A stretch of DNA of 64,000 bases from Malacoraja senta (GCA_038087875.1 CM075988.1:1674001-1738000); one strand, 5' to 3'. Counted from the stretch's first letter, positions 1-51,476 are shown. The notes: a model not told the origin generated them from the sequence alone. Program-made: numbers and translations.

Positions 1-854
1 TGTTCATCTAAGAATTGAAGCACTAAAAGAGATTCTGCATTTTCACTAACATTCTCTAGTTTTCCAGTTGCTTTTCTAAGGATCCCTGTGGTATTATGAT
101 AATTCTCAAAAAAGTTAAATGTAGAAGAGCAGGTCCAAGATGTAAAAAAAATATGCAGGGAAAAGTAAACAATCTGGTTCGGCAGTTAGCATTCAAGAGG
201 ATTGGGTCCAAGCCCATAATCTAGGACAGGATTTCCATGCAGTACCGAGGGAAATCTGGGCAACTGGGGTGGATGAAGGCAGACCTGGGAACTCTCTGTC
301 ACAAAGGACCATTTGTTCTGAGGTGGAAATATGTTTTCAGGAGGAATGTGCTCTGCTCTAGAGCAGTGTCTGGTCATTATAATGCTGATGTGTGGCCTTG
401 CTGCATATTTCCTTCGCTCCATAGATGCTGCCGCACCCTCTGAGTTTCTCCAGCAGTTTTGTCTACCTTGCTGCATATAAGTTTGCTGATACATTTGCTG
501 CTTTGTTATAGTCACTGCACATCTCGGTTGGGTCGCTTTGTGATTCTAAAAGGTGCTCTATCATGTATGGTCTAATTTAAAAAAAATTAACCAAATCCAC
601 ATATCACGGCTCAAAAACTGGCCGCAGCCAATGATTTGAATTGAAGAAAATGTCTCCCATTAAATCCTGATCTTCATTCCTATTTCCTGGATAGCCTTTT
701 CCTGACTGTCTGCTGTTCATGCTTGCACCAGCCATAACTCAGCTGTGCAGTTAGAATTCACTGCACCATTTGCTTTCCTCGCACCACGGCTCAAGCTGCC
801 TGGACCTTCAACTCCTGCAAAATCCACAATATGATACGTCATCTTGATGCTTTT

Positions 855-1585: not shown

Positions 1586-1756
1586 CCGCTGCGTCACTGT
1601 GCCACCCAATTAGTGTGATGGTTCAGCAAGAGGGAGTGAGCATACCACCAGCGCAGTGACCTATAGATGGGTCACTTCCAGCTGCCTGTGGTTGATCCTG
1701 ACCCTGTGCATGGAGTTTGCTCGCTCTCCACATGACCAGATGGTATTCCCCAGGTG

Positions 1757-2132
1757 TGTAGGAAGGAACTGTAGATGCTGGTTTAAACCGAAGAGAGAGA
1801 CAAAAAGTTAGATGTAACTCAGCGGGACAGGCAGCATCTCTCTGGAGAAAACGAATGGGTAACTCTTTGAGTCGAGACCCTTCTTCAGACTGAAAGTCAA
1901 GGGAAAAGGAAACAAGAGATATGGATGATGATGTAGAGAGATATAGAACAATGGATGAAAGATATGCAAAAAAGTAACGATGACCAAGGAAACAGGCCAT
2001 TGTTCGCTGTTTGTTGTGTGAAAAAGAGAAGCTGGTGTGATTTGGGTGGGGGAGGGATGGAGAGAGAGGGAATGCCGTTACTTGAAGTGAGAGAAATCAA
2101 TATTCATACCACTGGGTTGTAAGCTGCCCAAG
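1757..2132 (-). mobile_element. Penelope-like element 3' fragment with degenerate hammerhead-like motif
   Basis: Similar to the 3' end of the element at 49240-49535. Confidence 0.75.
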
Positions 2133-2561: not shown

Positions 2562-2695
2562 AGTCTGAAGAAGGGTCTCGACCAGAAACGACACCCATTC
2601 CTTCTCTCCAGAGATGCTGCCTGTCTCACTGAGTTACTCCAGCATTTTGTGTCTATCTTCGGTTAAAAGCAGCATCTGCAGTTCCATCCTGCACA
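2562..2695 (+). mobile_element. Short Penelope-derived repeat with hammerhead-like motif
   Basis: CTGAAGAAGGGTCTCGACCAGAAACGAC followed by the family tail. Confidence 0.75.
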
Positions 2696-3560: not shown

Positions 3561-3633
3561 GAGCTGGAATGCGTTTCCTACATTGATAGTACATAGAGTG
3601 TGACCACTCAGAAGCTGCTTCCATTGGAGCTGT

Positions 3634-3726
3634 AGACACAAAATGCTAGAGTAACTCAGCAGGACAGGCAGCATCTCTCTTGAGAGAGAAGGAATGGGTG
3701 ACGTTTTGGGTCGAGACCCTTCTTCA
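3634..3726 (-). mobile_element. Short Penelope-derived insertion with 12-bp TSD
   Basis: CATTGGAGCTGT at 3622-3633 and 3725-3736. Confidence 0.8.
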
Positions 3727-5627: not shown

Positions 5628-5694
<67 letters not shown>

Positions 5695-5769: not shown

Positions 5770-6450
5770 TCTCAATCCCACACTGATCCCCATTCCTGCC
5801 TCTATTCAGTCCTCACTGACATCCCCTGTGCTCCATTTACCCGCCCCCCCATCTATTCATCCTGCACTGATCTCCTTATCCACCTCACATTGATTCTCCT
5901 GCCACCCCCATCCATCCTGCACTGCTCCCACCCATCCATCCTGCATTGATCCCCCCCATTCATCCCGTACTGACCCCCCCCTCCATTTATCCTGCACCGA
6001 TCCCCCATCCATCCTGCAGTGATCCACCCATTCGCCCTGTAGTGATCCCCGCCATTCATCATGCACAGACCCTCCGATCCACACTGTACTGACCTCCCCC
6101 ATTCATCCTGTACTGATCCCCCCCATGCAAGAAGAATGGGGGAATCAGTCTGAAGAAGGGTTTCGGGCCGAAACGTTGCCTATTTCCTTCGCTCCATAGA
6201 TGCTGCCTCACCCGCTGAGTTTCTCCAGCATTTTTGTCTACCCCCATTCATCCTGTACTGATCCCCCCCCATCCACCCTGCACTGATTCTCCCCCATCCA
6301 CCCTGCACAGACCTCCCCCTGTCCATCCCGTACTGATCCTCCCATTCAACCCCACTGACATCCCCCGCGCTCTCCCCTCACAATTTTATCTACTCCAACC
6401 AACACGCACTAATTCCCCAGCGTCAATCCATCCATTCCGCACGGATTGCC
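5770..6450. repeat. Degenerate ~21-bp minisatellite (CATCCTGCACTGATCCCCCC-like), interrupted at about 6135-6242 by a Penelope-derived repeat
   Basis: Repeated catcctg(c/t)actgatccccc units. Confidence 0.85.
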
Positions 6451-7573: not shown

Positions 7574-7669
7574 CTGAAGAAGGGTTTCGGCCCGAAACGT
7601 TACCTATTTCCTTCGCTCCATAGATGCTGCTGCACCCGCTGAGTTTCTCCAGCATTTTTGTGTACCTTC
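7574..7669 (+). mobile_element. 96-bp Penelope-derived insertion starting at the hammerhead core, 11-bp TSD
   Basis: ATTGTCCTTCT at 7563-7573 and 7670-7680; insert begins CTGAAGAAGGGTTTCGGCCCGAAACGTT. Confidence 0.85.
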
Positions 7670-7794: not shown

Positions 7795-8916
7795 AGTCGA
7801 GTTTAGTTTAGGGAATGCAGCGCGGAAACTGGTCCTTTGACCCACCGAGTCCATGCCGACCAGCGAACCTTGTACACTAACACTATCCTACACACATTTG
7901 GGGCAATTTACAATCTTACCAAGCCAAGGGTCGGCACAGTGGCGCAGCGGTAGAGTTGCTGCCTTACAGCACTATGGGTGCTCTCTGTACGGAGTTTGTA
8001 CGTTTCCCTGTGACCTGCGTGGGTTTTCCCCGGGATCTCCAATTTCCTCCCACACTCCAAAGACGTACAGTTTTGTAGGTTATTTGGATGGGGAAAATTG
8101 TAAATTGTCCCTATTGTGTGTAGGATAGCATTAGTTTATGAGGATCGCTGGTTGGTACAGACTCAATAGACAATAGGTGCAGGAGTAGGCCATTCGGCCC
8201 TTCCAGCCAGCACCGCCATTTACTGTGATCATGGCTGATCATCCACATTCAGTACCTGTTTCCACGCTGTATCTCTAAACTACACATCTGTATGTCTTTG
8301 GAGCGTGGGAGGAAACCGGAGAAAACCCACGCAGGTCACAGGGAAACCGACAAACTCTGTACAGACAGCAACCGGAGTCAGGATCAAACCTGGGTCTCTG
8401 GTGCTGTAAGGCAGCAACTCTACCTCAGCACCATTGTGCTGCCCGCCGTCAGCTGAACTATCCTCCCCTCTGTTCAATGACATCTGTATCCATAGTGATT
8501 TAGTATCCACAACTCCAGGCGGGGCCGGGCAACGTCTAACCTCGTACAGAAACGGGCCCCTTGGTCCACTGTGTCCATGCCAACGTACACCAATTCCATT
8601 TGCCCACCCCGGCTGTGTATCCTGTTCCTTGGCTAATTAGGTGCCTGTGCAACCATGTAGTGATTGTATCTGATTCCACCTCCATCTCTGGCAGCACGTT
8701 CCACATATCCACCATGTGTGGAAAACACCATTGCCCTCAAATCCCACAATGTACAGAAGCCAATTCACCTACAACCCCACATGTCTTTGGTGAGTGGGAG
8801 CAACCCGGATCACGGGGAGAACGTACAAATTGCGTACAGACAGCATCCGTAGTCAGGATTGAACCCGGGTCCCTGACGCTGTAGGGCAGCAAGTCTACCG
8901 CTGCGCCACCGTGCTG
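7795..8916. mobile_element. Cluster of nested SINE pieces on both strands and CR1 tails
   Basis: A-box TGGCGCAGCGG near 7940 (+); reverse copies at 7800-7925, 8282-8445 and 8750-8916; CR1 tail at 8165-8260. Confidence 0.7.
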
Positions 8917-9235
8917 ACCATGGTGCCAGACCCCCTGAGTTACTCCTGCACTTTGTGTCTTGTGTTGTCCCGTTAGTTGTATTTAGAACTAAAGCTGTGC
9001 ATTTGGAGAAACAAATGGGGAGGTTATGGGAAAAGTGAGATAAATCAACAGGATCTCTCCTCGACGCATGCTCAGTTCACCCAGCCCCTTCACCTCTGCT
9101 GCCTTGTGTAGTGATTTGATGCACTTCTCGAGGGAACACGCAGTTCCGAATCATGGATTCATCAATTTATAAATAGGTTTATAATCTGACAATGTTCTAT
9201 GGTCCTTCATGTTTTAACCTTCCTTTATGTTGCAG

Positions 9236-10583: not shown

Positions 10584-11018
10584 GTAAGCTGAGTTGCTGT
10601 GTTCTGCCCAGCAAGGTGGGCCATTGCCTGCATCAATGATACTCTATGCTTCAGCACCGATGTGTTGCCCTTCTTGAAAATGATCACCAACGCTCTTTCA
10701 TCCACCTTTAGACAGCGCTTCCACATAGCAATAACATGCAAAATATTCCCATATTGCTTTTGCTTCCTTTGACAGCTCTGACCTTCCTCTCATCAGAGAT
10801 AATTTTGTCAAATTTGCACCATCAGAAGCATTCGTAAATGTGATCACATCCAAAGCATTTCCTCTTCATCTTCTCTGCATTAAGAAGAACAATTTCAGCA
10901 TCTCCATGTTGGTGAAATGCCTGAATTCTAATTTCTAGACCTCTTTCCAAGGCGTGATGCTCAGCACTGAACCCCAACCCAGCTGAACATGACGGACTTG
11001 TTTGTTTTAGTTTGTAAT

Positions 11019-14000
11019 GGGTGAGCAGAGAAACAGAGGGGTGTAAAATGCGGGCGGAAGCAATAGGTAGCAAGGTGAAAAGTAAAAGTGGCAGGCAGAC
11101 AAATCCAGGGCAAAAATCAAAAAGAGCCACTTTTCAACATAATTGTATAAGGGGTAAGAGCGTTGTAAAAACAAGCCTGAAGGCTTTGTGTCTCAATGCA
11201 AGGAGCATTCGTAATAAGGTGGATGAGCTGAACGTGCAGATAGCAATTAATGATTATGATATAGTTGGGATCACGGAGACATGGCTCCAGGGTGACCAAG
11301 GCTGGGAGCTGAACATCCAGGGATATTCAATATTCAGGAGGGATAGAGAGAAAGGAAAAGGAGGTGGGGTAGCGTTGCTGGTTAGAGAGGAGATTAACGC
11401 AGTGGAAAGGAAGGACATTAGCTTGGAGGATGTGGAATCGGTATGGTTAGAGCTGCGAAACACTAAGGGGCAGAAAACGCTGGTGGGTGTTGTGTACAGG
11501 CCACCTAGCAGTAGTAGTGAAGTTGGGGATGGCATCAAACAGGAAATTAGAAATGCGTGCAACAAAGGCAAAACAGTTATAATGGGTGACTTCAATCTAC
11601 ATATAGATTGGGTGAATCAAATTGGCAGGGGTGCTGAGGAAGAGGATTTCTTGGAATGTATGAGGGATAGTTATCTAAACCAACATGTAGAGGAACCAAC
11701 GAGAGAGCAGGCTATTCTAGACTGGGTATTGAGTAATGAGGCAGGGTTAGTTAGCAGACTTGTTGTGCGTGCCCCCTTGGGCAAGAGTGACCATAATATG
11801 GTTGAGTTCTTCATTAGGATGGAGAGTGACATTGTTAATTCAGAAACAACGGTTCTGAACTTAAAGAAAGGTAACTTTGAGGGTATGAGACGTGAATTGG
11901 CCAAGATTGACTGGCAATTAGTTCTAAAAGGGTTGACGGTGGATATGCAATGGAAGGCATTTAAAGACTGCATGGATGAACTACAAAAATTGTTCATCCC
12001 AGTTTGGCAAAAGAATAAATCAGGGAAGGTAGTGCATCCGTGGATAACAGGGGAAATCAGGGATAGTATCAAAGCAAAAGATGATGCGTACAAATTAGCC
12101 AGAAAAAGCAGCATACCAGAGGACTGGGAGAAATTCAGAGACCAGCAGAGGAGGACAAAGGGCTTAATTAGGAAAGGGAAAATAGATTATGAAAGGAAAC
12201 TGGCAGGGAACATAAAAACTGACTGCAAAAGTTTTTATAGATATGTGAAGAGAAAGAGATTAGTTAAAACTAATGTAGGTCCCTTGCAGTCAGAAACAGG
12301 TGAATTGATCATGGGGAACAAGGATATGGCGGACCAATTGAATAACTACTTTGGTTCCGTCTTCACTAAGGAAGACATAAATAATCTGCCGGAAATAGCA
12401 GGGGGCCGCGGGTCAAAGGAGATGGAGGAACTGAGTGAAATCCAGGTTAGTCGGGAAGTGGTGTTGGGTAAATTGAATGGATTAACGGCCGATAAATCAC
12501 CAGGGCCAGATAGGCTGCATCCCAGAGTACTTAAGGAAGTAGCTCCAGAAATAGTGGATGCATTAGTGCTAATTTTTCAAAACTCTTTAGATTCTGGAGT
12601 AGTTCCTGAGGATTGGAGGGTAGCAAACGTAACCCCACTTTTTAAGAAGGGAGGGAGAGAGAAAACGGGGAATTACAGACCAGTTAGTCTAACATCGGTA
12701 GTGGGGAAACTGCTAGAGTCAGTTATTAAAGATGGGATAGCAGCACATTTGGAAAGTGGTGAAATCATTGGACAAAGTCAGCATGGATTTACGAAAGGTA
12801 AATCGTGTCTGACGAATCTTATAGAATTTTTCGAGGATGTAACTAGTAGAGTGGATAGGGGAGAACCAGTGGATGTGTTGTATCTGGACTTTCAGAAGGC
12901 TTTCGACAAGGTACCACATAAGAGATTAGGATACAAACTTAAATCACACGGTATTGGGGGTTCAGTATTGATGTGGATAGAGAACTGGCTGGCAAACAGG
13001 AAGCAAAGAGTAGGAGTAAACGGGTCCTTTTCACAATGGCAGGCAGTGACTAGTGGGGTACTGCAAGGCTCAGTGCTGGGACCCCAGCTATTTACAATTT
13101 ATATTAATGATCTGGACGAGGGAATTGAAAGCAACATCTCCAAGTTTGCGGATGACACTAAGCTGGGGGGCAGTGTTAGCTGTGAGGAGGATGCTAGGAG
13201 ACTGCAAGGTGACTTGGATAGGCTGGGTGAGTGGGCAAATGTTTGGCAGATGCAGTATAATGTGGATAAATGTGAGGTTATCCACTTTGGTGGCAAAAAC
13301 GGGAAGGCAGACTATTATCTAAATGGTGGCCGATTAGGAAATGGGGAGATGCAGCGAGACCTGGGTGTCATGGTACACCAGTCATTGAAAGTAGGCATGC
13401 AGGTGCAGCAGGTAGTGAAGAAAGCGAATGGTATGTTGGCCTTCATAGCAAGAGGATTTGAGTATAGGAGCAGGGAGGTTCTACTGCAGTTGTACAGGGT
13501 CTTGGTGAGACCACACCTGGAGTATTGCGTACAGTTTTGGTCTCCAAATCTGAGGAAGGACATTATAGCCATAGAGGGAGTGCAGAGAAGGTTCACCAGA
13601 CTGATTCCTGGGATGTCAGGACTTTCATATGAAGAAAGACTGGATAGACTTGGCTTATACTCGCTAGAATTTAGGAGATTGAGAGGGGATCTTATAGAAA
13701 CGTACAAAATTCTTATGGGGTTGGACAGGCTAAATGCAGGAAGATTGTTCCCGATGTTGGGGAAGTCCAGGACAAGGGGTCACAGCTTAAGGATAAGGGG
13801 GAAATCCTTTAAGACCGAGATGAGGAAAAAACTTTTTCACACAGAGAGTGGTGAATCTCTGGAACTCTCTGCCACAGAGGGTAGTTGAGGCCAGTTCATT
13901 GGCTATATTTAAGAGGGAGTTAGATGTGGCTAAGGGGATCAGGGGGTATGGAGAGAAGGCCGGTACGGGATACTGAGTTGGATGATCAGCCATGATCATA

Positions 14001-18499: not shown

Positions 18500-19775
18500 G
18501 CAGTTCAGTACACTTGAATTTATCGTCACATGTACCGAGGTACAGTGAAAAGCTTTTGTTGTGTGCAATCCAGTCAGCGGAAAGACAATACATGATTACA
18601 GTTGAGCGATTTACAGTGTAAGTGAATAACATTTAGTGCAAGGTAAAGCCAGCAAAGTCTGATCAAGGATAGTCTGAGGATCACCAATGAGGTAGATCAG
18701 AAATGCTCTGGTTGTGATAGGATGATTCAGTTGCCTGATAACAGTTGGGGAAAAAAATGTCCCTGAATCTGGAGGTGTGCATTTTCACACTTCTATACAT
18801 TTTCCCTGATGGGAGAGTGGGGAAGAGAGAGTGGCCAGGGTGGGACTGGTGTGTGATTATGCTGCTGGCCTTGCAGAGGCAGTGTGAGGTGTAGATGGAG
18901 TCAATGGAAGGGAAGTTGGTTTGTGTGATGGTCTGGGCTGCATCCACAATTCGCTGTAATTTCTTGTGGTCTTGGATGGAGCTGTTCCCAAACCAAGCGG
19001 TGATGCATCCCGATAAAATGCTTTCTGTGGCTCATCTATAGATGTTGGTGAGGGTTGTTGGGGACATGCCGAACTTCCTAAGCTTTCTAAGGAAGTAGAG
19101 GCGTTGGTGTGCTTTCTTGGTCATTGCTTCAGTATGGGTGATCCAGGAGAAGTTGTTGGTGATATTGACTCCTAGTAATTTGAAGTTTTCAACCGTCTCT
19201 ACTTTGGCGCCGTCAATGCAAACTGGGGTATGTGTACCGCTTCACTTCCTGAAGTCAATCACTATCTCTGAAGAAGGGTCTCGACCCGAAACGTCACCCA
19301 TTCCTTCTCTCCAGAGATGCTGCCTGTATCGCTGAGTTACTCCAGCTTTTTGTGGCTATCTTTGGTTTAAACCAGCATCTGCATTTCCTTCTTACACACT
19401 ATCTCCTTTGTCTTGCTGACATTGTTGTCTCCACACCAGGACATGAGGTTCTCGATCTCCTTCCTGTACTCCCATCTCATCATTTTGATATTCGGCCCAC
19501 TATGGTAGTGTTTCCGAATTTTCAAATTGAATTAGATTTGTAGATGGCTGCACAGTCGTGGGTGTACAAGGAATAAAGAAGGGGGTGAGAACGCAGCCTT
19601 GCGGAGCACCAGTGTTGAGGATTATCGTAGAGGATGATGTGTCCCCTCTCCTCACTGATAGGGATCTGTTGGTCAGGAAGTCGAGGATCTAGTCGCAGCG
19701 AAGACCGCTGACAGCAAGTCCCGTGAGTGAAGTGATATGTTTGGATGGTATAATGGTGTTAAAGGCAGACAGTAA
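18500..19775 (-). mobile_element. Rex1/Babar-type LINE 3' fragment, degraded
   Basis: [15 protein letters not shown] and HPGHSLF..LPSGK.YRS remnants homologous to the element at 29.4-33.0 kb. Confidence 0.8.
19268..19396 (+). mobile_element. ~130-bp Penelope-derived insertion with an intact minimal hammerhead core, 9-bp TSD
   Basis: CACTATCTC at 19260-19268 and 19397-19405; CTGAAGA-A-GGGTC-TC-GACCC-GAAA-CG-TC at 19268-19295. Confidence 0.85.
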
Positions 19776-22150: not shown

Positions 22151-22404
22151 CTTTAAACTGCCCCTCTCACCTTAAACCTACGCCCTCAAGTGTTTGACAT
22201 TTCCACCCTGGGATAAAGGTACTGTCTGTCTACCTATGAAAAGCCTCTCACATCCCAATTACCTGCAAACATTCAATCTTTGTCACTTCTTGTCTAATAC
22301 CAAAATCAGCTCTGCACCACTTTAGCTCTTTACTTGCCGACCCGTTTAATATTTTTCCATAACTATTTTAAATTGGTCCCACAGTGCTCCCCCACTGACA
22401 CTTC

Positions 22405-23976
22405 AGGATAAGTCTCCAGGTCCTGACAGGATATTCCCTAGGACATTGAGGGAAGTTAGTGTAGAAATAGCAGGGGCTATGACAGAAATATTTCAAATGT
22501 CATTAGAAACGGGAATAGTGCCGGAGGATTGGCCTACTGCGCATGTTGTTCCATTGTTTAAAAAGGGTTCTAAGAGTAAACCTAGCAATTATAGACCTGT
22601 TAGTTTGACGTCAGTGGTGGGCAAATTAATGGAAAGGATACTTAGGGATAATATATATAAGCATCTGGATAAACAGGGTCTGATTAAGAACAGTCAACAT
22701 GGATTTGTCCCTGGAAGGTCATGTTTGACTAATCTTCTTGAATTTTTCGAAGAGGTTACTAGGGAAATTGATGAGGGTAAAGCAGTGGATGTTGTCTATA
22801 TGGACTTCAGTAAGGCCTTTGACAAGGTTCCTCATGGAAGGTTGGTTAAGAAGATTAAATTGTTGGGTATTAATGGTGGAGTAGCAAGATGGATTCAACA
22901 GTGGCTGAATGGGAGATGCCAAAGAGTAATGGTGGATGGCTGTTTGTCAGGTTGGAGCCGGTGACTAGTGGGGTGCCTCAGGGGTCTGTGTTAGGTCCAC
23001 TGTTGTTTGTCATGTACATAAATGATCTGGATGATGGTGTGGAAAATTGGATTAGTAAGTATGCAGATGATACTAAGATAGGTGGTGTTGTGGATAATGA
23101 AGTAGATTTTCAAAGTCTACAGAGAGATTTAGGCCATTTGGAAGAGTGGGCTGAAAGATGGCAGATGGAGTTTAATGCTGATAAATGTGAGGTGCTACAT
23201 CTTGGCAGGACAAATCAAAATAGGACGTACATGGTAAATGGTAGCTAATTGAGGAATGCAGTTGAACAGGGATCTAGGAATAACTGTGCATAGTTCCCTG
23301 AAGGTGGAATCTCATGTAGATAGGGTGGTAAAGAAAGCTTTTGGGGTGCTGGCCTTTATAAATCAGAGCATTGAATATAGAAGTTGGGATGTAATGTTAA
23401 AATTGTACAAGGCATTGGTGAGGCCAATTCTGGAGTATGGAGTACAATTTTGGTCGCCTAATTATAGGAAGGATGTCAACAAAATAGAGAGAGTACAGAG
23501 GAGATTTACGAGAATGTTGCCTGGGTTTCAGCAACTAAATTACAGAGAAAGGCTGAACAAGTTAGGTCTTTATTCTTTGGAGCGCAGAAGGTTAAGGGGG
23601 GTCTTGATAGAGGTCTTTAAAATGATGAGAGGGATAGACAGAGTTGACGTTGATAAGCTTTTCCCATTGAGAGTAGGGAAGATTCAAACAAGAGGACATG
23701 ACTTGAGAATTAAGGGACAGAAGTTTAGGGGTAACATTAGGGGGAACCTCTTTACTCAGAGAGTGGTAGCTGTGTGGAATGAGCTTCCAGTGGAAGTGGT
23801 GGAGGCAGGTTCGATTATATCATTTAAAAATAGATTGGATGGGTATATGGACGAGAAAGGAATGGAGGGTTATGGTCTGAGTGCAGGTAGATGGGACTAG
23901 GGGAGAAAAAGTGTTCGGCATGGACTTGAAGGGCCGAGATGGCCTGTTTCCATGCTGTAATTGTTATATGGTTATA
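22405..23976 (+). mobile_element. 5'-truncated CR1 LINE (YADD subfamily), disrupted RT
   Basis: ORF pieces 22446-22964, 22889-23248 and 23256-23900 with PQGSVLGP and YADD; one frameshift and one stop. Confidence 0.93.
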
Positions 23977-25782: not shown

Positions 25783-27599
25783 CAGACAATTGACAATAGG
25801 TGCAGGAGTAGGCTGTTCGGCCCTTCAAGTAAGCACCGCCATTCAATGTGATCATGGCTGATCATCCACAATCAGTACCCCGTTCCTGCCTTCTCCCCAT
25901 ATCCCCTGACTCCGCTGTCTTTAAGAGCCCTATCTAGCTCTCTCTTGAAAGTATCCGGAGAACCGGCCTGAGAATTCCACAGACTCACAACTCTGTGTGA
26001 AAAAGTGTTTCCTCATCTCTGTTCTAAATGGCTTACCCCTTATTCTTAAACTGTGGCCCCTGGTTCAGGACTTCCCCAACATCGGGAACATGTTTCCTGC
26101 CTCTAGCGTGTCCAAACCCTTAATAATCTTATATGTTTCAATAAGATTCCCTCTCATCCTTCTAAATTCCAGAGTATACAAACCCAGCCGCTCCATTCTC
26201 TCAACATATGACAGTCCCGCCATCCCGGAAATTAACCTTGTGAACCTACGCTGCACTCCCTCAATAGCAAGAATGTCCTTCCTCAAATTTGGAGACCAAA
26301 ACTGCACACAATACTCCAGGTGTGGTCTGACACACTACCCCAGGTATGGTCAGGTGTACAACTGCAGAAGGACCTCTTTGCTCGTATACTCAACTCCTCT
26401 TGTTATGAAGGTCAACATGCCATTCGCTTTCTTCACTGCCTTCTGTACCTGCACGCTTACTTTCACTGACTGATGAACAAGGACCCCCAGATCCCATTGT
26501 ACTTCCCCTTTTCCCAACTTGACACCATTTAGAAATTAATCTTCCTTCCTGTTTTTGCTACCAAAGTGGATAACCTCACATTTATCCACATTAAACGGCA
26601 TCTGCCATGCATCTGCCCACTCACCCAACCTGTCCAAGTCACCCTGCATTCTCATAGCATCCTCCTCACAGTTCACACTGCCACCCAGCTTTGTGTCATC
26701 TGCAAATTTGCTAATGTTACTTGTTATCCCTTCATCTAAATCATTGATGTATATTGTAAATAGCTGCGGCACCGAGCCTTGCGGTACCCCACTAATCACT
26801 GCCTGCAATTCTGAAAGGGACCCGTTAATCCCTACTCTTTGTTTCCTGTCTGCCAACCGATTTTCTATCCATGTCAGTACCCTACCCCCAATACCATGTG
26901 CTCTAATTTTGCCCACTAATCTCCTATGTGGGACCTTTTCAAATGCTTTCTGTAAGTCCAGGTACACTACATCCACTGGCTCTCCCTTGTCCATTTTCCC
27001 AGTTGCGTCCTCAAAAAATTCCCGAAGATTAGTCAAGCATCATTTCCCCTTCGTAAATCCATGCTGACTCGGACCGATCCTGTCACTGCTATCCAAATGT
27101 AATGTTATTTCATCTTTTATGATTGACTCCAGCATCTTCCCCACCACTGATGTCAGGCTAACTAGCCTATAATTCCCTGTTTTCTCTCTCCTGCCTTTCT
27201 TAAAAAGTGGGATAACATTAGCTACCCTCCAATCCACAAGAACTGATCCTAAATCAAGAGAACATTGGAAAATGATCATCAATGCATCCACGATTTCTAT
27301 ACCCACTTCCTTAAGTACCCTGGGATGCAGACCACCAGGCCTTGGAGATTTATCAGCCTTCAGTCCCATCAGTCTACCCAACACCATTTCCTGCCTAATG
27401 TGGATTTCCTTCAGTTCCTCCGTCACCCCAGATCCTCTGGCTAGTACATCAGGAAGATTGTGTGTGTCCTCCTTAGTGAAGACGGATCCAAAGTACTTGT
27501 TCATCTCATCTGCCATTTCCTTGTTCCCCATAATAAATTCACCCTTTTCAGTCTTCAAGGGTCTAACTTTGGTCTTAATTATTTTTTTCCTCTTCACAT
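25783..27599 (-). mobile_element. CR1 LINE (different subfamily) nested in the host CR1
   Basis: RT ORF pieces 27040-27597, 26536-27036 and 26065-26307; own tail at 25783; CAT shared at both junctions. Confidence 0.9.
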
Positions 27600-28366
27600 T
27601 ACATCCCTGTTTTTGTATACAAGCCCTCTCAAAATAAATGCTAGCATAGCGTTAGCTTTCTTTATTACCGATTTGACTTGCAGATTAACTTTTTGGGAAT
27701 CCTACACCCAGCACTCCCAAGTCCCTTTGCACCTCCGAATTCTGGATTCTCTCCCCATTTAGAAAATAATCTGCGCCTTTATTCCTACTATCAAAATGCA
27801 CGACTCCACACTTTGCTACAGTATATTCCATCTGCCACTTCTCTGCCCACTCTCCCAACCTATACAAGTCCTTCGGCAGAGTCCCTGCTTTTACTACATT
27901 AGCAGCCCCTCCAGCTATTTTCGTATCAACTGCAAACTTGGCCACAAAGCCTTCAATCCCCTCGTCCAAATCATTAATATACAATGTGAAGAGCAGCTGA
28001 CAGCCAACCAGAACAAGCCCCCATTTATGGCCACTCTTTGCCTTCTGCCATCCAGCCAACCTGCTATTCATGCTAGTATCTGCTCTTTGATACCATGGGC
28101 TTGCATTCTTAACAACCTTATCAAAGGCTTTCTAAAAATCGAGGTAAACAACATCTACTGGCTGTCCTTTGTCTGTCCTGCTTATTACTTCTTCAAAGAA
28201 TTCCAGTAAATTTGTCAGGCAAGACCTTCCTTTCACAAAGCCATCCTGACTTCAGCCTACTTTATCGTGAACTTCAAAGTGCTCTGTAACTTCATCCTAT
28301 ATAATGGACTCTAAAATCTTACCAACCACTGAAGTCAGACGTATAGTTCCCAGTCTTCTTCTGCTG

Positions 28367-29407: not shown

Positions 29408-32400
29408 CCCTTGCTCATTGAGAAACCAAGTTGGCGCCTGCCTGCGGCAACTTTTGCGGAGCACCAGAACAGAAAAGGTTCACCTACAACTTCTATCAAC
29501 TTACCTGCATCAGGGAAACGGCAGTAATCGGTGCCATTTCAGACAAGCTGCTTGGGCAGTTGAAAGCGCTGGCAATTTCGCGATCTCCCGCAGCTGCGGG
29601 AGCCCCGGACTTTAAACTTTCCCACGCTGGCTGTGGAACTCCCGATCCGACTGGATCCCAGGTACCGTACCAGGAAACCCCGGGATGACCTCCAGAGCCG
29701 ACGGGCCAGATCTCCCAGGAACAATGAAGCTGGAGCTGCCGACTTTGAGGGAACCCCCGTTCGTTACGGAGCTGGAGCTGCCGCCTGTGAAGCGCAGGTC
29801 CGCAGAAACAGCAGGTACAGTAAACTCAGCACCTGGAAACAAAGGGGAAGCCTCCATTGTGTCCGGAAACGTGGCCGACGGGCAGGACTTCAGGTCAGAC
29901 TGAAGCGCAGGGGACTTCGGCCCCCTCTCCCTACTATCCTACTGGCCAACGTACTGTCTCTTGAAAATAAAGTGGAGGACTTAAGGGCAAGGCTGCTTTA
30001 TCAAAGGGAGCTGAGGGAATGCTCTGTGTTCTGTTTCACAATGACATGTCTCACCCCCAGCTCCCCAGACTCAGCGGTCCAGCCTGAAGGTTTCTCCATC
30101 CACCGTATGGACCGTACACTGGCATCTGGGAAAGGGAGAGGAGGGGGCGTCTGCCTCATGGTCAACTCTGCGTGGTGCTCAGACGTGGCAGTCCTGTCCA
30201 ACTCCTGCTCTCCACACCTCGAACATCTGCCGGTGAAGTGCCGTCCCTTCTACCTCCCAAGGGAATTCACCTCCATCATGACCGCGGTCTACATCCCACC
30301 CCAGGCAGACGTCCGTCTGGCACTGGAGGAGCTGCACGCCGTGGTCAACAAACACCAGACGTCTTACCCCGAGGCGTTCACCACCATAGCCGGGGACTTC
30401 AATAAGGCAAACCTAAAGAAATCACTCCCTAACTTCCACCAACATGTCTCCTGCTGCACCAGAGGACCAAACACCCTCGACCACTGCTACACCACCATCA
30501 AGAATGCCTATCGTTCTATCCCTCGCCCTCACTTCGGTAAATCCGACCATACCATGGTGTTGCTTCTTCCTGCCTACAGGCAGCAATTAAAGAGCGCACC
30601 CCCAGAGGTGAGGACAGTACAGAGCTGGTCGGGGGGGCAGAGGAACAACTCCAGGACTGTTTGGAGTCTGTAGACTGGGCAATGTTCAAGGACTCGGCAA
30701 CGGACCTGAACGAATACGCCACAGTCGTTACAGACTTCATTAAGAAGTGTGTGGAGTACTGCATCCCCACCAAAACCTTCCGAGCATTTCCCAATCAGAA
30801 ACCTTGGATGAACTTTGAGATCCGCACTCTTCTGAAGTCCAGACACCGGGCATTCATGTCTGATGATACAGTGGCCTACAAGAAGTCCAGATACGACCTT
30901 GGTAAGGCCATCAAAAAGGACAAAGGGGACTTCTGCTCCAAACTGGAGGAAAAGACAGATGTTCGGCGGCTGTGGCACGGCCTGAATGAATCACCTCTTA
31001 CAAGTCGAAATCAGGAGGCAGCTCAAATGTCGGCGAAACATCACTCCCTGATGAGCTCAATGCGTTTTACGCACGCTTTGATAGGGAGAACACTGATGTG
31101 CCTTCCCGAGCCCCGATTCGCTGTGATGGTATTTCAGTCTCAGTCACAGAGGCCGACGTCAGGAAATCCTTCAGAGGGGTGAACCCTCGAAAAGCGCCTG
31201 GACCTGATGGTATACCTGGTTGTGTTCTAAAAACCTGTGCGGACCAACTGGCTGGAGTTTTTGCGGACATTTTCAACCTCTCACTTCTGAGGTCTGAGGT
31301 TCCCACCTGCTTTAAAAGGGCATCAATTATACCAGTGCCCAAGAAGAGTAAGGTGACGTGCCTCAATGACTATCGACCAGTGGCACTAACGTCGGTGGTG
31401 ATGAAGTGCTTTGAGAGGTTGATCATGGCGCAGATCAACTCCTACCTCAACAAAAACCTGGACCCACTGCAGTTCGCTTACCGCCACAACAGATCAACGG
31501 TGGATGCGATCTCGCTGGCCCTCAACTCCGTCCGCTCTGGACCACTTGGACAACAAAAACTCATATGTCAGGCTGTTATTCATCGTTTACAGCTCGGCAT
31601 TTAATACAATCATCCCCTCCAAGCTGGTTACCAACCTCGCAGAACTGGGTCTCTGCGCATCCCTCTGCAATTGGATCCTCGACTTCCTCACTCTCAGACC
31701 ACAGTCTGTTTGTATTGGTGGAAATGTGTCAGACTCGATAACAATCAGCACGGGAGCACCTCAGGGCTGCATGCTCAGCCCCCTGCTGTACTCACTCTAT
31801 ACTCATGACTGCGTAGCCGGACATAGTGCGAACTCCATCATCAAGTTCGCTGACGATACCACTGTTGTGGGACGGATCACTGATGGGGATGAGTCAGAGT
31901 ATAGAAGAGAGATCGAGTGACTGTCCATATGGTGCCAGCACAATAACCTGGCCCTCAACACCAGCAAAACCAAGGAACTGATTGTGGACTTTGGAAGGAG
32001 TAGGATGGGGACCCACAGTCCCGTTTATATCAACGGGTTGATGGTTGAAAGGGTCAAGAGCTTCAAATTCCTGGGCGTGCACATCTCTGAAGATCTTTCC
32101 TGGTCCGAGAACACTGATCCCATAATTAAGAAAGCACATCAGCGCCTCTACTTCCTGAGAAGATTACGGAGAGTCGGTTTGTCAAGGAGGACTCTCTCTA
32201 ACTTCTACAGGTGCACAGTAGAGAGCATGCTGACCGGTTGCATCGTGGCTTGGTTCGGCAACTTGAGCGCCCTGGAGAGGAAAAGACTACAAAAAGTAGT
32301 AAACACTGCCCAGTCCATCATCGGCTCTGACCTCCCTTCCATCGAGGGGATCTATCACAGTCGCTGCCTCAAAAAGGCTGGCAGTATCATCAAGGACCCA

Positions 32401-33010
32401 CACCATCCTGGCCACACACTCATCTCCCTACTACCTTCAGGTAGAAGGTACAGGAGCCTGAAGACTGCAATGACCAGGTTCAGGAATAGCTACTTCCCCA
32501 CAGCCATCAGGCTATTAAACCTGGCTCGGACAAAACACTGAACTTTATTAGCCAATTAACTGTTATTTGCACTTTATCAGTATATTGATTCATGTGTGTA
32601 TATATTTATATAATGGTATATGGTCACACTGATCTGTTTTGTAGTCAATGCCTACCATACGCTTGGGCAGTCTACATCCTGGTGGCCTGAACGTTGAATT
32701 CTCCCAATTCTGCTAGCCCTGGCTGTCCCCTCCCTTTCATCAGCCATCTGGTTGTCTCCTCCCCTCCCCCAGCCCTCGGGCTCCTCCTCCGCCTTTTCCT
32801 TTTTTCCTTTCTTCTCCCCACCCCCTATCAGTCTGAAGAAGGGTTTCGGCCCGAAACGTTACCTATTTCCTTCGCTCCATAGATGCTGCTGCACCCGCTG
32901 AGTTTCTCCAGCATTTTTGTGTACCTACCATGTTCTGTTGTGCTGAAGCAAGGCAAGAATTTCATTATCCTATCAGGGACACATGACAATAAACTCACTT
33001 GAACTTGAAC
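29408..33010 (+). mobile_element. Near full-length Rex1/Babar-clade LINE with a frameshifted single ORF (APE plus RT)
   Basis: [75 protein letters not shown] plus (TTGAAC)n tail; probable start codon mutated to TTG at 29431. Confidence 0.92.
32657..32926 (+). mobile_element. Penelope-like 3' fragment with hammerhead motif (32833-32860), inserted in the Rex1 3' UTR
   Basis: CCTACCAT at both junctions; family tail. Confidence 0.8.
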
Positions 33011-34948: not shown

Positions 34949-35735
34949 TAGACACAAGGGACTGTAGATGCTAATTTACAAAAAAAGACCCAAAGTGCTG
35001 GAGTAACTCAGCAGGTCAGGCAGACATGGATTGGCAACTTTTTGGGTCGGGACCCTTCTTCAGTAACCTTAGTAGGGGGAACGCTGGGAGAGGTGGGGTT
35101 GGGACAAAATCTGATAGTGATATAGGCAAGAGGGGTTTGATTGGCAAATGGTTGAATAAAGGGCAGAGATTAAAAAAACAAATGGCTGTAAGATAAGGAG
35201 AGAAGGGGCGTGAAAGGTGAAGCCAGAGGAAGGCATTTAGGTGGCAGAGATAGGTAGTGAGGGGGAGTGGGAGAAATGGGTGCGCATCCAGATGTATAAC
35301 TGGGAATAGAGGGGGGGGGTTAGGAGAATTCAAAGTTCATACTATTGGGTTCTGCTTGGGTTGCAAACAACCCAACAGAATGCACATTGAATTCTCCAAT
35401 TTTTGGTAACAGACACCCTCTCTTCCCTGGATCATTTCTCCTACTATCTCTCTTCCACCTATATACCTTCCTCAGACTTCATATTTCACGTATCATCTCC
35501 TTATCTCGCAACCTTTTGTCGTTTCATCTCCAGCCTTTGTTCAACAACTTTGTTCAAACCTCCCCTTGCTTGTATCCACCTATCACTTGCCAGACCTTGT
35601 CCTGCCCTCCCGCCTCCACCCTCTCCCAGCTTTATCCCCTATTGTACAGTCTGAAGAGGGGTCTCGACACCACTATCCATTCCCTCTGCTGATGCTGCCT
35701 AACACACTGATGAGTTCTTCCGGCACTTTGCGACG
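34949..35735. mobile_element. Older head-to-head pair of Penelope-like 3' fragments
   Basis: Minus arm 34949 to about 35350 and plus arm from about 35355 to 35735, each with a degenerate hammerhead motif. Confidence 0.65.
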
Positions 35736-44245: not shown

Positions 44246-44455
44246 AGGTAGACACAAAATGCTGCAGAAACTCAGCGGGTGAGGCAGCATCTATGGAAAG
44301 AAGGAATTGGCGACGTTTTGGGTCAAGACCCTTCTGGTCTCGACCCGAAACGTCACCAATTCCTTCTCTCCATAGATGCTGCCTCACCCACCGAGTTTCT
44401 CTAGCATTTTGTGTCTACCTTCGATTTTACCAGCATCTGCAGTTCTTTCTTAAAC
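44246..44455. mobile_element. Miniature fold-back Penelope-derived insertion with 12-bp TSD, inside a minus-strand SINE
   Basis: Inverted arms meet at about 44335; ATTTACAGAGGC at 44233-44244 and 44456-44467. Confidence 0.85.
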
Positions 44456-45831
44456 ATTTACAGAGGCAAATTACCCTACAAACCCGCAAGTCTTTGGGAT
44501 GTGGGAGGAAACCGGAGAATCCGGAGGAAACCCATGCAGTCACAGGGAGAACGTGCAAACTCCACATAGGCAGCCCCCGAGGTTAGGATCTATGGCACTC
44601 TGAGGCAGCGGCTCTGCCAGATGTACCACTGTGCTGCCCCTAAAGGTTATTCAAGCAGATGTTTCCAGTCTACACTTGCTATATTGCTGAATTACTTGTC
44701 CTTCTCATCAATTTGACCTTGCTGTAATTTAGAACACCGAGTCCCATTTTATCTTTGTCCTTTTCCCTAACTGTAAATCTTTCTGACTTACAATCACAAA
44801 ACTCCCCCCGCTCCTGTTAACCCACCCAGCTTCTGTCAGAACCCACTACTCATTGGCCTTTCCACTATCTCAAACAATTCTGTATCCTCTATACATTTTA
44901 CACTGACTGCCCCAATTAATATCAGTATAATTCCCAGGTAAGGGAAATCAAAAACCAGAGGACATAGATGAGAGGGGGTAAATGTAAGAAGAACCTGAGG
45001 GGCAGCTTATTCCACACGGATTGTGATGGGTATATAGAACGAGCTGCCAGAGAAGCTGGTTGAGGCAGGAAGTATAACAACATTTGAAAGATACTGGGGA
45101 TAGAATAGAGGGACATGGGCAAATGGAGCAACTTGGTCAGCGTGGATGAATTAGGCTGACGGGCATGTTTCTGTGTATGATTCTGTGAAAGAAAGACAGA
45201 TTTGAAATCAAATAATTTTGGTTTTTGTTTTGGAATATTGCCTACAAATTTCCTCTTTCTTTCGTGGACCATAATGTTTCGAAGACCAGGGACTGTGGTT
45301 TGGATCGGGGACTGAGGCTTGGTCTAGGGGCAGGGCTCAACCAGGGAGAAGTGCTCAGAACTGGGGAGCTCGGGCCACGGGAGAGGGGGGTTTGGACCAG
45401 GGGAGAGAGGGGCTCGAACCAGGGGAAGGGGGCTTCGACCAGAGAAAGAGGCTGGGGAGGGGGGGGGGGGGTGTTAGGACCAGGAAGAAGCTCAGCTCTG
45501 TCGCCTGAATGTTAGAGGATATTGGTGAGTAATTAAGGTCTGTGTAATAATAATAATAATAGATTTTATTTATATAGCGCTAGGCAGGGACTGCAGATGC
45601 TGGTTTACATCAAAGATACACACAAAATGCTTTAGTAACTCAGCGGAACAGACAGCATCTCTGGATAGAAGGAATGGGTGATGTTTCGAGTCTGAGTCTG
45701 AAGAAGGGTCTAGAAGTCGCCCATTGCTTCTTTTCCAGCGATGCTGCCTGTCCTGCTGAATAATTGAGGTCAATGATTGTGATTGATGACAGTTCAATTA
45801 TTTCAGCAGCTTCCTCTTCCCGATTCTGCAG

Positions 45832-47072: not shown

Positions 47073-47544
47073 TCCAAATGAGAAAGTGGGATAACATTGA
47101 ACCAACGTGAATGGGTGATCGATGTGGACTCTGGGCCAATGGGCCTGTTTCCATTCTGTTTCTATAAATTAAATGCTTTAAAATAGATTTTATTAAAAAT
47201 GAATGCTTCATCATGGGGAATAGCTAGCAGCCATGAATATAAGATTGTCAATAAGAATTCCATTCAGCAATTTGGAGGGAGGATGGTGTGGAACTCACTG
47301 ATACAGGGAATGATTAAAGTGAATAGTACGGATCCATTGAAGGCAAGGCTGAACAACTTTGAGGGTGGCGAGAATAAATAGTTAGGCTGATGCATAAGGA
47401 ATGTCTAGAGAATCTTCAAGTGGAACAGAAATATCACTGTGGACTGGTTGTGATGAATGGCCTGATTCTGTGCTGTTTATCCTATGGATTGCAAAAAAAA
47501 AAAGTTGGGAACTTAACATTCCCAGCTTCAGGTATTCTGAAAGG

Positions 47545-49537
47545 TAGACACAAAATGCTGGAGTAACTCAGCGGGACAGGCAGCATCTCCGGAGAGAAGG
47601 AACGGGTGACGTTGCGGATCGGGACCCTTCTTCACACTGATGTCAGGGGACAGAGAGAATGTAGTCTGAGACAGTAAGGCTGGTGGGAGAACTGGGAAGG
47701 GGGAGAGGATGGAGAGAGAGGGAAAGCAAGGGCTATTTGATATTGGAGAAGTCAATGTTCATACCGCTGGGGTGTAAGCTGCCCAAGCAAAATATGAGGT
47801 GCTGTTCCTCCAATTTGTGCTGGGCCTCACTCTGACAATGGAGGAGGCCCAGGGCAGAAAGGTCAGATTGGGAATGGGTGGGGGAGTTAAAGTGTCGAGG
47901 AACGGGGAGATCAGGTAGGTTAAAGCGGACTGAGCGGAGGTGTTCAGTGAAACGATCACCGAGCCTGCGCTTGGTCTTGCCGATGTACAGAACTTGACAC
48001 CTGAAACAGCGGATACAGTAGATGAGGTTGGAGGAGGTGCAAGTGAACCTCTGCCTCACCCGAAAAGACTGTCGGGGTCCTTGGATAGAGTCGAGGGGGA
48101 AGGTAAAGGGACAGGTGTTGCATCTCCAGCGGTTGCAGGGGAAAGTACCTGGGGAGGGGGTGGTTTGGGCGGGAAGGGACGAGTTGACCAAGGAGTTGCG
48201 GAGGGAACGGTCTCTGCAGAAAGCAGAAAAGGGTGGAGATGGGAAGATGTGGCCAGTAGTGGGATCCTGTTGGAGGTGGCGAGAGTGTTGGAGGATTATT
48301 GGCTGTATGCGACGGCTGATGGGGTGGAAGGTGAGGACAAGGGGGACTTGGACCATCTCCGACATCTCCCTACCGTTTCTGGATCTCACCGTCTCCATCA
48401 GAGGAGACAGACTATCGACTTACATCTACTACAAACCTACTGACTCCCATAGCTATCTAGACTACACTTCTTCCCACCCTGCTGCCTGTAAAGACTCTAT
48501 CCCCTACTCCCAATTCCTCCGTCTACGCCGCATCTGCGCCCAGGATGAGGTTTTCCATACTGGATCATCGGAGATGTCCTCATTCTTTAGGAAACGGAAG
48601 TTCCCCTCTTCCATTATAGATGAGGCTCTCACTAGGGTCTCCTCAATATCCCAGAGCTCCGCTCTTGCTCCCCCTCCCCACATTTGCAACAAGGCCAGAG
48701 TCCCCCTTGTCCTCACCTTCCACCCCACCAGCCGTCGCATTCAGCATATAATCCTCCAACACTTTCGCCACCTCCAATGGGATCCCACAACTGGCCACAT
48801 CTTCCCATCTCCACCCCTTTCTGCTTTCCGCAGAGACCGTTCCCTCCGCAACTCCCTGGTCAACTTGTCCCTTCCCACCCAAACCACCCCCTCCCCAGGT
48901 ACTTTCCCTTGCAACTGCAGGAGATGCAACTCCTGTCCCTTTACCTCCCCCCTCGACTCCATCCAAGGACCCCAACAGTCTTTTCGGGTGAGGCAGAGGT
49001 TCACTTGCACCTCCTCCAACCTCATCTACTGTATCCGCTGTTCCAGGTGTCAACTTCTGCACATTGGCGAGACCAAGAGCAGGCTCGGCGATCATTTCGC
49101 TCAGTCCGCCTTAACCTACCTGATCTCTCGGTTGCTCAGCACTTTAACTCCCCCTCCCATTCCCAATCTGACCTTTTTGTCCTGGGCCTCCTCCACTGTC
49201 AGAGTGAGGCCCGGTGCAAATTGGAGGAATAGCACCTCATATTTTGCTTGGGCAGCTTACACCCCAGCAGTATGAACATTGACTTCTCTAACTTCAAATA
49301 GCACTTGCTCTCCCTCTCTCTCCATCCCCTCCCCAGTTCTCCCACCAGTCTTACTGTCTCCGACTACATTCTATCTCTGTCCTGCCCACTCCCCTGACAT
49401 CAGTCTGAAGAAGGGTCTCGACTCGAATCGTCGCCCATTCCTTCTCTTCAGAGATGCTGCCTGTCCAACTGAGTTACTCCAGCATTTTGTGTCTACCTTC
49501 GATTTAAACCAGCATCTGCAGATCTTTCCTACAGACT
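47545..49537. mobile_element. Penelope-like element (Neptune-type): RT C-terminus plus GIY-YIG endonuclease, with an inverted duplicate 3' arm
   Basis: LPFLDL, YYKPTDSHSYLDYTSSHP, SIPYSQFLRLRRIC; Cys-rich linker; NLIYCIRC...YIGKTKRRL; TSD-like AGGTATTCTG(A/G)AAGG at 47530-47544 and 49538-49552. Confidence 0.92.
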
Positions 49538-50847: not shown

Positions 50848-51062
50848 GTGCTGGAGTAGCTCAGCGGGTCAGGTAGCATCTGTGGAGAACATGGACAGGT
50901 GATGTTTCACAGAGTGCTGGAGTAACTCAGTGGATCAGGCAGCATCTGTGGGGAACATGGACAGGTGATGTTTCACAGAGTGCTGGAGTAACTCAGTGGA
51001 TCAGGCAGCGTCCCTGGAGAACATGGACAGGTGACGTTTCGGGTTGGCACCCTTCCCCAGTC
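50848..51062 (-). repeat. Tandem triplication (~64-bp unit) of a Penelope-derived tail segment
   Basis: GTGCTGGAGTA(A/G)CTCAG...GAACATGGACAGGTGA repeated three times. Confidence 0.85.
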
Positions 51063-51476
51063 TGTTTCAACCTTTTCAAAGAGCTCTGTTGATCCCAGCA
51101 TTGCTTCCTGTGGAATGGCTTATCCATCATTGCACAGTCTGAAAAATACAGCTCCAGATACTACCCTCTGCCATCTGTTGGTCTGGTTATCAAATTCAAC
51201 CTGGATTACTGATCAAAATAAAATGCAGAGCCTCATTCAATTAATACGTTAGAATTTTTTTCTTGCTGTTTCTAACCTTAACTATATTATCCCGATCTGT
51301 GTCAGTTTGTTTTTCTCTTGATTAAATATATAGTGTTCTCTTCATTTTTTGTTTGTTGTCTTGAGGTTCTAGTCCTCATTGCACGCAAACCAGTGCTTTG
51401 ATTGCCGTCAAATGGGTTTTGTAAAGCAACAGTGACTGATTCATTGTTTCTCTCTCTCTTTCACATGCGCACGCAG

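Follow-up and report, generated by a model that had tools for sequence, protein, structure and literature searches.

Short repeats are dispersed over both strands of a 64,000-nucleotide stretch of the Malacoraja senta genome (GCA_038087875.1, CM075988.1:1674001-1738000; this whole stretch is called the window below), and they carry intact or decayed copies of a minimal hammerhead ribozyme motif, which raises the question of what these repeats are and what fixes their ends. The original prediction suggested a separate retrozyme- or SINE-like family of tiny units mobilized by a Neptune-type element, and the repeats on both strands are confirmed where it placed them. We number positions from the ribozyme core: +1 is C3 (the first C of CUGA), -1 is the preceding base, and the predicted cleavage falls after +28. 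The copy at 19268 is laid out as follows.

19268..19396, plus strand: short terminal unit of a Penelope-like element (PLE), subfamily A, with the core at +1 and the long tail end (+129), from the sequence and its target-site duplication (TSD)
19260..19268, plus strand: left TSD, 9 nt, the last base shared with C3
19397..19405, plus strand: right TSD, 9 nt
19268..19295, plus strand: minimal type I hammerhead motif, from the sequence, a descriptor scan and features given in the accessible text of PMC4209133
19268-19274, plus strand: CUGAAGA
19275, plus strand: extra A
19276-19287, plus strand: stem II, 4 bp with a tetraloop
19288-19291, plus strand: GAAA
19291-19294, plus strand: palindromic ACGU
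After 19295, plus strand: predicted cleavage
19360..19396, plus strand: optional 'tail' of ~37 nt between the preferred 3' ends (about +92 and +129), from the bimodal 3' ends and the accessible text of PMC11167929 and PMC8557442

To gauge abundance, we searched the 1.94-Gb genome for exact matches to two cores, and found 13,276 copies of the 31-nt core of 19268 and 19,101 of the 28-nt core of 7574 and 32833, with none for either reversed control. A profile HMM was built on +45..+92 only, downstream of the core, because selection on the core was to be avoided. In a sample comprising the window and 120 regularly spaced 10-kb stretches (1.264 Mb), it gave 521 matches (22 in the window, 499 in the other stretches) and 0 in reversed sequence. 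This density of about 400 anchor matches per Mb extrapolates to several hundred thousand in the genome, both arms of inverted pairs being counted, a rough figure because the sampled stretches over-represent the window's contig and small contigs. The short repeats measure 90-145 bp. We analyzed 508 copies; 367 scored at least 35 bits, of which 107 have an inverted partner (both arms of one pair counted) and 260 have none.

The motif is the minimal type I hammerhead of PLEs with a palindromic ACGU helix III, as originally proposed: its descriptor matches 63 times in the 1.264 Mb and 0 times in reversed sequence. Three of these matches lie in the window (7574, 19268 and 32833, the only window copies with the full descriptor); 6150, also first named among the best copies, has a G-G mismatch in stem II. 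An Rfam search of the window at E<=10 returned no hammerhead. The core (CUGANGA / GAAA / NUH), the G10.1-C11.1 pair of helix II and the palindromic helix III are intact in the majority sequences of subfamilies A, B and C. The extra A before stem II and the 2-bp stem I are as first described, where they were given as caveats; both are published features of PLE hammerheads in the accessible text of PMC4209133. The two stem II variants also exist, but they differ in the loop and one U-A/U-G change and are not two-sided covariation. More generally, the subfamilies differ at loop II, N7, H17 and one-sided wobble positions, with no two-sided covariation in the helices between them, at a divergence too small for a strong test. 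The original prediction named as its refutation a lack of core conservation or covariation above the flanking repeat together with a lack of cleavage, and the first half of this holds: within copies, conservation of the core does not exceed that of the flank downstream (decay of 0.070 vs 0.094, 0.026 vs 0.029 and 0.112 vs 0.116, p 0.23-0.80). Inserted copies decay neutrally, with 63 full descriptors per 521 anchor matches. In five folds stem II is predicted to form with a probability of about 0.01 or less, the core strand being paired instead with +29..+46 downstream in both subfamilies, and for dimers the active-type fold is predicted at -13 kcal/mol vs -21 to -25 for the best folds (a gap of 8-11 kcal/mol). 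The default fold predicted for the ribozyme is thus an inactive hairpin. This agrees with the low or protein-assisted activity reported for PLE-type motifs (PMC4209133, PMC11167929, accessible text), and the insertion ends hold no trace of cleavage.

The remaining copies in the window are the following.

407..465, plus strand: unit cut off downstream of the ribozyme (+33/+35), 13-nt TSD
1754..2132, minus strand: 5'-truncated PLE end with 244 nt upstream of the core at 1888
2562..2695, plus strand: short unit starting at -3, damaged core, imperfect 11-nt flanking repeat
3633..3726, minus strand: short unit starting at +2/+4, TSD of 12-14 nt
6144..6242, plus strand: short subfamily B unit with broken stem II, within a minisatellite-bearing repeat
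7574..7669, plus strand: short subfamily B unit, motif intact, 11-nt TSD (7563-7573 / 7670-7680)
32660..32923, plus strand: 5'-truncated PLE with ORF end, 3' UTR, intact motif at 32833 and short tail; 8-nt flanking repeat
34955..35063, minus strand: older, decayed short unit
35647..35730, plus strand: decayed copy of a diverged subfamily, lacking the GAAA half of the core
44246..44456, both strands: two short units inverted head to head, their joint in stem II, flanked by a 14-nt TSD (1 mismatch)
45586..45759, both strands: head-to-head inverted pair including 45698, no TSD found
47541..49537, both strands: head-to-head PLE insertion, one 2-kb event, from its ORF and TSD
50849..51067, minus strand: decayed unit with a ~66-bp local tandem expansion lacking the CUGA half of the core

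Several of the copies first named are not tiny units: 32833 belongs to a 265-bp insertion that includes the last PLE ORF codons. Nor does the description hold for 1888, which is a longer truncated PLE, for 45698, which is half of an inverted pair, or for 49405 and 47635, which are the two ends of one insertion. In the latter, the minus arm has its core at 47635, the plus arm carries the C-terminal part of the ORF to 49275 (with a Cys linker and a GIY-YIG-like region) and its core at 49405, and a 15-nt TSD with 1 mismatch lies at 47530 and 49538. The 6144..6242 unit was probably copied passively, because its junction is identical in three other loci.

Other repeats share the window. The minisatellite-bearing repeat at 5850-6350 holds a PLE stub at an identical junction in at least 4 places. 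A GC-rich repeat at 4485-4700 (minus strand) encloses a piece of PLE tail lacking the CUGA half, and 5 sampled copies show an identical junction; the sequence behind it resembles what we take to be a DNA transposon end, so that the fragment is probably a captured passenger, although the whole may be a chimeric non-autonomous family. A long GA/CT-rich simple repeat block spans 4900-5800. At 11018-13888 (plus strand) there is a nearly intact LINE ORF2 of 956 aa with AP endonuclease and reverse transcriptase (RT), presumably CR1-like, and further LINE fragments lie at 22350-23900, 26536-27651 and 29564-32541. DIRS-like parts at 56457-59677 (minus strand) comprise an RT frame of 648 aa (RVT_1, E 2.5e-23), followed by a tyrosine recombinase frame of 332 aa (Phage_integrase, E 1.8e-10).

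To find the element behind the units, we searched with the protein of the 47541..49537 plus arm, which gave 67,776 first-look candidates in the genome, of which 150 were scored. We then took 20 loci with long open frames; in 19 of them the motif follows the ORF stop at a distance of about 120 nt. With 1,222 aa, the longest frame matches RVT_1 (E 6.5e-6) and, at its C-terminus, GIY-YIG (E 0.0015), both under the Pfam cut-offs; the two PLE ORF parts of the window gave no Pfam match on their own. The longest frame also has a CX4CXXC linker; this linker is recorded in locus L070 and in the window ORF, and a CX2-5CXXC linker between RT and endonuclease is reported for Neptune, shared with Nematis (PMC8557442, accessible text). 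The element is likely of the Neptune clade, judging by the Cys linker and by a published survey in which vertebrates hold Neptune and Poseidon only, which supports the predicted Neptune-type element as the mover of the units. Two loci (L066 and L073) are tandem junctions, in which 3' UTR, motif and tail are followed by the next ORF, whose first in-frame ATG, read by eye, lies about 165 nt behind the core. We also noticed in L066 (810-935) a 41-codon upstream frame that opens at the conserved ATG following the ribozyme and extends over the inferred start of the ORF (by eye), and in L070 (3505-7170) a PLE ORF with a Pro/Ser/Thr-rich N-terminal region holding a 27-aa repeat whose number varies between copies.

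The short unit is, letter for letter, the junction of pseudo-LTR (pLTR) and tail of the autonomous element, and 35 of 53 long copies extend as far as the ORF's C-terminal end on the same strand. In a tree that holds 66 short and 37 long copies, the short/long label switches 28 times vs 29.7 when labels are shuffled (137 of 500 shuffles as low), on 90-92 columns of low resolution with weak support and a bootstrap that has not settled. The only columns skewed between short and long copies reflect the A/B subfamily differences; stubs (the short units) stand to long copies as 49:15 in A and 16:21 in B. Among the inverted pairs, which include 44246-44456 and 47541-49537 in the window, the joints peak at -6..-1 and +9..+11, the sites of two short palindromes.

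TSDs of at least 9 nt flank 43 of 255 testable non-inverted copies vs 0-3 in each of six shuffles, while the majority of the 255 have none by the same test. Their lengths are mostly 9-16 nt, most commonly 13-15, in stubs and ORF-bearing copies alike, so that the units do have TSDs of their own above chance, but longer ones than the 9-12 bp first given. The 3' ends form two peaks, near +92 and +129. The long tail is found in 43 of 96 stubs vs 11 of 46 long copies (p 0.017), an excess expected if stubs derive from junctions followed by an ORF. In an Anolis element the genomic tail ends are reported to be two internal RT start sites (PMC11167929, accessible text), and by analogy we take the two tail ends here as inferred RT start sites.

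Because of the ORF linkage, the tandem junctions, the intermixing on the tree and the common tail ends and TSD sizes, we conclude with high confidence that the units are the terminal piece (minimal hammerhead plus 3' tail) of a PLE with RT and GIY-YIG endonuclease. Single hammerhead motifs have been ascribed to truncated PLEs by Cervera and de la Pena (PMC4209133, accessible text). An independent non-autonomous SINE- or retrozyme-like family, with its own masters and RNA and moved in trans by the Neptune protein, seems improbable. It would fit the narrow size classes, the TSDs, the stub-rich subfamily A as against B, and the more frequent long tail of stubs, which could in principle be re-primed at +92; moreover, small tandem arrays of whole motifs exist elsewhere in the genome, and retrozymes are reported to derive from pLTRs (bioRxiv 10.64898/2026.07.22.740005, accessible text). 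But the tree shows no separate short lineage, stub-specific clade or diagnostic column beyond the A/B split, at the low resolution of 90 columns, and every stub type examined has ORF-linked counterparts. Individual copies differ in their 5' ends across some 13 nt, the core is not conserved within copies, and the window holds no tRNA gene, no Rfam match and no SINE-type Pol III head (tRNA, 5S or 7SL). Stubs also lack the upstream and post-tail sequence that the Anolis protein needs (PMC11167929, accessible text). The separate family is thus not supported: its unit is the PLE junction, short and ORF-linked copies intermix, and the copies lie dispersed, singly or in inverted pairs, and do not form 150-450-bp tandem arrays.

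Metazoan non-LTR retrozymes (PMC7229834; bioRxiv 10.64898/2026.07.22.740005; accessible text) are alike in being non-coding, in their type I hammerhead, in their kinship to PLE pLTRs and in having dispersed monomers. What defines them is circular RNA and a tandem arrangement in which every unit bears a hammerhead (mostly canonical, 150-450 bp), whereas the window units are single or inverted and minimal. No retrozyme-like tandem of full-hammerhead units occurs in the window, where the 50849-51067 tandem lacks CUGA. Elsewhere, tandem arrays of 43-58-bp units with a whole minimal hammerhead lie at G000:C4:84.65-85.69 Mb, C2:193.3-195.4 Mb, C4:52.53 Mb and C3:4.93 Mb; these are closer to the definition of non-LTR retrozymes than the window units and could form intramolecular dimers. 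PLE-derived minisatellites of 34-bp and 66-bp unit pieces without the CUGA half occur at G000:C2:86.6-87.9 Mb and C1:219-227 Mb, and in the window at 50849-51067, with up to 2,869 matches.

If the units are PLE ends, what sets their 5' boundary? Among the 260 non-inverted copies, 102 have their 5' end in -6..+7, with a peak at -3..-1; about 70 end at +8..+45 (68 of them inside +8..+44), 23 at -20..-7, 9 at -60..-21, 53 further upstream and 3 beyond +45. The per-base stop rate is 0.052 at -6..+7, about six times that of the interior (0.008 at +8..+44), and it falls to 0.023 in a shoulder reaching -20 and to 0.004 at -60..-21. Simulated uniform truncation places 37 of 212 called ends (29 true) in -6..+7 and gives no such peak. 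The -6..+7 bin can be inflated by older subfamilies whose upstream sequence is absent from the reference set, and because this could mimic a 5' peak, two further checks were made. In TSD-defined copies (38, being the 43 minus 5 tandem or element-internal repeats), the 5' end falls in -6..+7 for 25 and in no case at the cleavage site, a count that is not fully independent because the TSD search was centred on the aligned end. Among 30 exact cores of subfamily B with known upstream sequence, read by eye, 16 stop at -6..+1, 1 near -12 and 13 run on, with no stops from -14 to -90.

This distribution bears directly on the reading that ribozyme cleavage products were reverse-transcribed into stubs. 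In its favor, the subfamily majorities keep an intact motif, and related motifs are reported to cleave as dimers or with protein (PMC4209133, PMC11167929, accessible text). However, the 3' product would start at +29, and ends do not accumulate where cleavage would occur: +28..+30 holds only 5 of 260, which is the background rate, and 0 of the 38 TSD-defined ones. The upstream pieces of duplicated cores (see below), among the matches listed, likewise end scattered and not at +28. The end distribution largely refutes this reading, which we regard as highly improbable.

Although their 3' UTRs are unrelated, the subfamilies all come to share YAGT just ahead of the core, and a pyrimidine tract plus YAG precedes it in all long subfamilies. 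The initiator consensus is YYANWYY, and the YAGT would fit either an initiator with A at -3 or a splice acceptor. We favor, as the probable though by no means settled reading of these sequences, that stubs are internally primed cDNA that ran off the capped 5' end of an mRNA starting ~3 bases before the ribozyme core. Ordinary premature 5' truncation competes with it: the RT would stall at the end of the core hairpin or at the upstream pyrimidine/C tract, add an untemplated base and be joined by microhomology, with no start site involved. We consider this unlikely but worth weighing, as the predicted pairing of the core strand with +29..+46 is common to both subfamilies, the 5' ends are scattered across 13 nt and have the shoulder to -20 (0.023), palindromes at -5..+4 and +9..+20 match the inverted-joint peaks, and PLE copies are reported to be mostly 5'-truncated (PMC8557442, accessible text). 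A stall would nonetheless be expected on entry into the hairpin, not after exit from it, and the peak keeps its position across subfamilies despite unrelated upstream sequence.

Duplicated cores add a second line of evidence. Head-to-tail repeats of the core number 1,202 within 42 nt, and 389 at longer period. For junctions at A(-3), among the first 100 of 191 matches, the preceding base is G in 33 of 38 non-C cases, A in 3 and T in 2, some rows being duplicates or possibly descendants of a common master (3 evident pairs). The expected share of G is 0.28 (p 6e-14, hand count). This G is templated by neither piece, and the G-before-A(-3) junctions fall into at least 11 types after identical ones are collapsed, in both subfamilies. 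Before A(-6), G or AG is found in 5 rows of the duplicated-core listing and A in 2. An extra G is reported to mark junctions of capped full-length L1 and is ascribed to the cap (PMC11702581, accessible text). By eye, several composites lie within one outer TSD, their upstream piece again stopping near -3..+2, as if the RT had run off, jumped and run off a second time. Premature truncation would have to explain why the added base is nearly always G, at -3 and -6 alike (among the matches listed), and why composites halt at an identical position twice or three times within one insertion. The RT may, on the other hand, add C at any stop and not copy a cap. Simple insertions give a weaker signal: in genome copies of subfamily B with a non-C at -4, G is found in 38 of the first 100 of 1,980 vs 28 expected (p 0.019), and at 30 inspected simple-insertion loci the bases added ahead of A(-3) are mixed. 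Simple insertions do not support a third start at G(-2) (non-A at -3 was G in 7 and T in 5 among the first 100 rows), and a count of G at internal truncation points returned 2,869 matches dominated by the 34-bp minisatellite. Whether the G is copied from a cap or added at any stop, the evidence indicates a physical stop at -3/-6.

The duplicated cores also served as a test for cleavage in vivo. In the first 100 of the 1,202, about 31 are 12-nt microhomology repeats (hand count), and the others have scattered upstream ends from +24 to +38, most often +35, with no peak at +28; ends are also scattered without a +28 peak in the 100 listed of the 389 longer-period ones. We had considered the +35 junctions as nested insertions, a reading dropped because outer TSDs span the composites. 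Template jumps land most often at +35, after AUU, which is a predicted bulge in the hairpin that covers the core.

The same junctions speak to splicing. D. virilis Penelope has its start site further upstream, by 46 nt plus an intron of 75 nt that ends at helix I (PMC2377424, PMC4209133, accessible text), so that the CAG-T before the core could also be a 3' splice site, with stubs copying a spliced RNA that has a very short first exon ending in GAG. The pyrimidine tract and YAG of all long subfamilies would suit this, and G-AG-T is the commonest duplicated-core junction among the matches listed. Yet G or AG is also added before A(-6), where the CAG is retained, TSDs abut the unit with no leader in common, and, as weaker evidence, no GT..AG skip ends at the core among the joints listed (15 of 27) in four contig sets. 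Loose ends in these sets fall at borders that genomic copies also have, a pattern uninformative about a start site. We hold splicing to be scarcely probable as the source of the stubs.

Run-off from a capped mRNA could work as follows. In a partial tandem, RNA polymerase II would start at a CA initiator (A at -3, with a minor start at A -6), giving an mRNA that begins cap-AGU-CUGAAGA and has its ORF start about 165 nt later. The protein would bind near the 5' end of this RNA, nick the target and prime cDNA at a tail site at about +92 or +129, as suggested by the Anolis element. After 95-135 nt the cDNA would reach the RNA 5' end, often adding a C opposite the cap. Joined to the target, it would become a stub with a 9-16-nt TSD; joined to a second cDNA, a head-to-head pair with joints at the two short palindromes; and by jumping back and recopying the 5' end, a duplicated core. 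For long copies, the template would be read-through RNA, with priming at a junction further downstream. Uncut RNA would be the template, and a ribozyme cut, if any, would release a 31-nt capped leader from the mRNA. Such run-off would account for the two size classes, for the 2-bp helix I (only AGU precedes the core) and for the need for partial tandems (PMC2377424, accessible text). The 68 of 260 ends inside +8..+44, a quarter of copies, fall outside it and need ordinary truncation. Against it, too, stand a start site read from DNA fossils, the weak G signal in simple insertions and ends that spread over 13 nt instead of falling on one base.

Much of this matches known PLEs. Published PLE hammerheads share the CUGANGA, the extra base between 9 and 10.1, G10.1-C11.1, the absence of loop III, the palindromic ACGU and the location in pLTRs; they are mostly single motifs, occur in fish Neptune, Poseidon and Xena, and in D. 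virilis have the same 2-bp helix I, which here may be explained by the inferred RNA start at -3. Helix II, however, is 4 bp here vs 7-8 bp in Schistosoma, and the copy number is 32,377 exact cores (two types) vs 4,000-9,000 motifs in coelacanth and Xenopus. Insertions of endonuclease-bearing PLEs, as far as the accessible text of PMC8557442, PMC3846280 and PMC2377424 describes them, resemble ours in the ~37-nt tail (30-40 nt as published), partial tandems, inverted copies joined at palindromes, TSDs and solo pLTRs, but their TSDs are 8-10 bp whereas the mode here is 13-15. Their solo pLTRs are ascribed to variable truncation or recombination, unlike the fixed 5' boundary with untemplated G seen here. 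The Poseidon PAc of Anolis carolinensis (Frangieh et al. 2024, PMC11167929) likewise has two internal RT starts that match its genomic tail ends; in vitro, both strands are nicked and extended, insertion is independent of cleavage and the ribozyme is inactive without protein. PAc differs in its clade and in an ORF that starts inside the ribozyme, whereas our element has the Cys linker and an ORF whose start follows the core by about 165 nt. The accessible text of that report describes neither a start site nor a run-off product. PLE pLTR hammerheads, tails, inverted copies and pLTR-derived retrozymes are already known, on the accessible text of PMC3846280, PMC7229834, PMC6765202 and bioRxiv 10.64898/2026.07.22.740005. 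A fixed 5' boundary with untemplated G, or strong-stop-like solo pLTRs, was not found in the open literature (subscription papers, figures, supplements and Repbase/Dfam lay outside the search), and the family may already be catalogued in Repbase/Dfam.

Minus-strand strong-stop DNA of retroviruses and LTR elements is cDNA that is primed near the RNA 5' end and runs off at the cap. Run-off at the cap would be common to that DNA and to our stubs, and the extra G to L1 cap-G junctions (PMC11702581, accessible text) and our stubs; here, though, priming would occur on a nicked chromosome, and the product would be integrated as a dead-end stub with no transfer to another RNA end. The likeness is an analogy of working, not of membership.

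The earlier headline of a new hammerhead SINE thus falls, and the value lies in the statistics of insertion ends. For annotation, a very abundant short repeat is part of a PLE and not a SINE. The role of the PLE hammerhead and the reason for partial tandems are open questions in the accessible text of PMC8557442 and PMC2377424. We propose, with the chances about evenly balanced, that this element starts its mRNA three bases before the hammerhead, that the ribozyme is a cap-adjacent decapping switch and not a multimer cutter, and that most transposition events yield strong-stop-like stubs of 95-135 bp. The model predicts that the RNA has its capped 5' end at A(-3). In this large natural sample, stops fall at the 5' border of the ribozyme with a cap-like G, and not where cleavage would occur, which supports the view that uncut RNA is primed internally in vivo. 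If the proposal is true, hundreds of thousands of stubs would record a start site and a cap in DNA, uncut RNA would be the in vivo template, and the need of PLEs for partial tandems would be explained.
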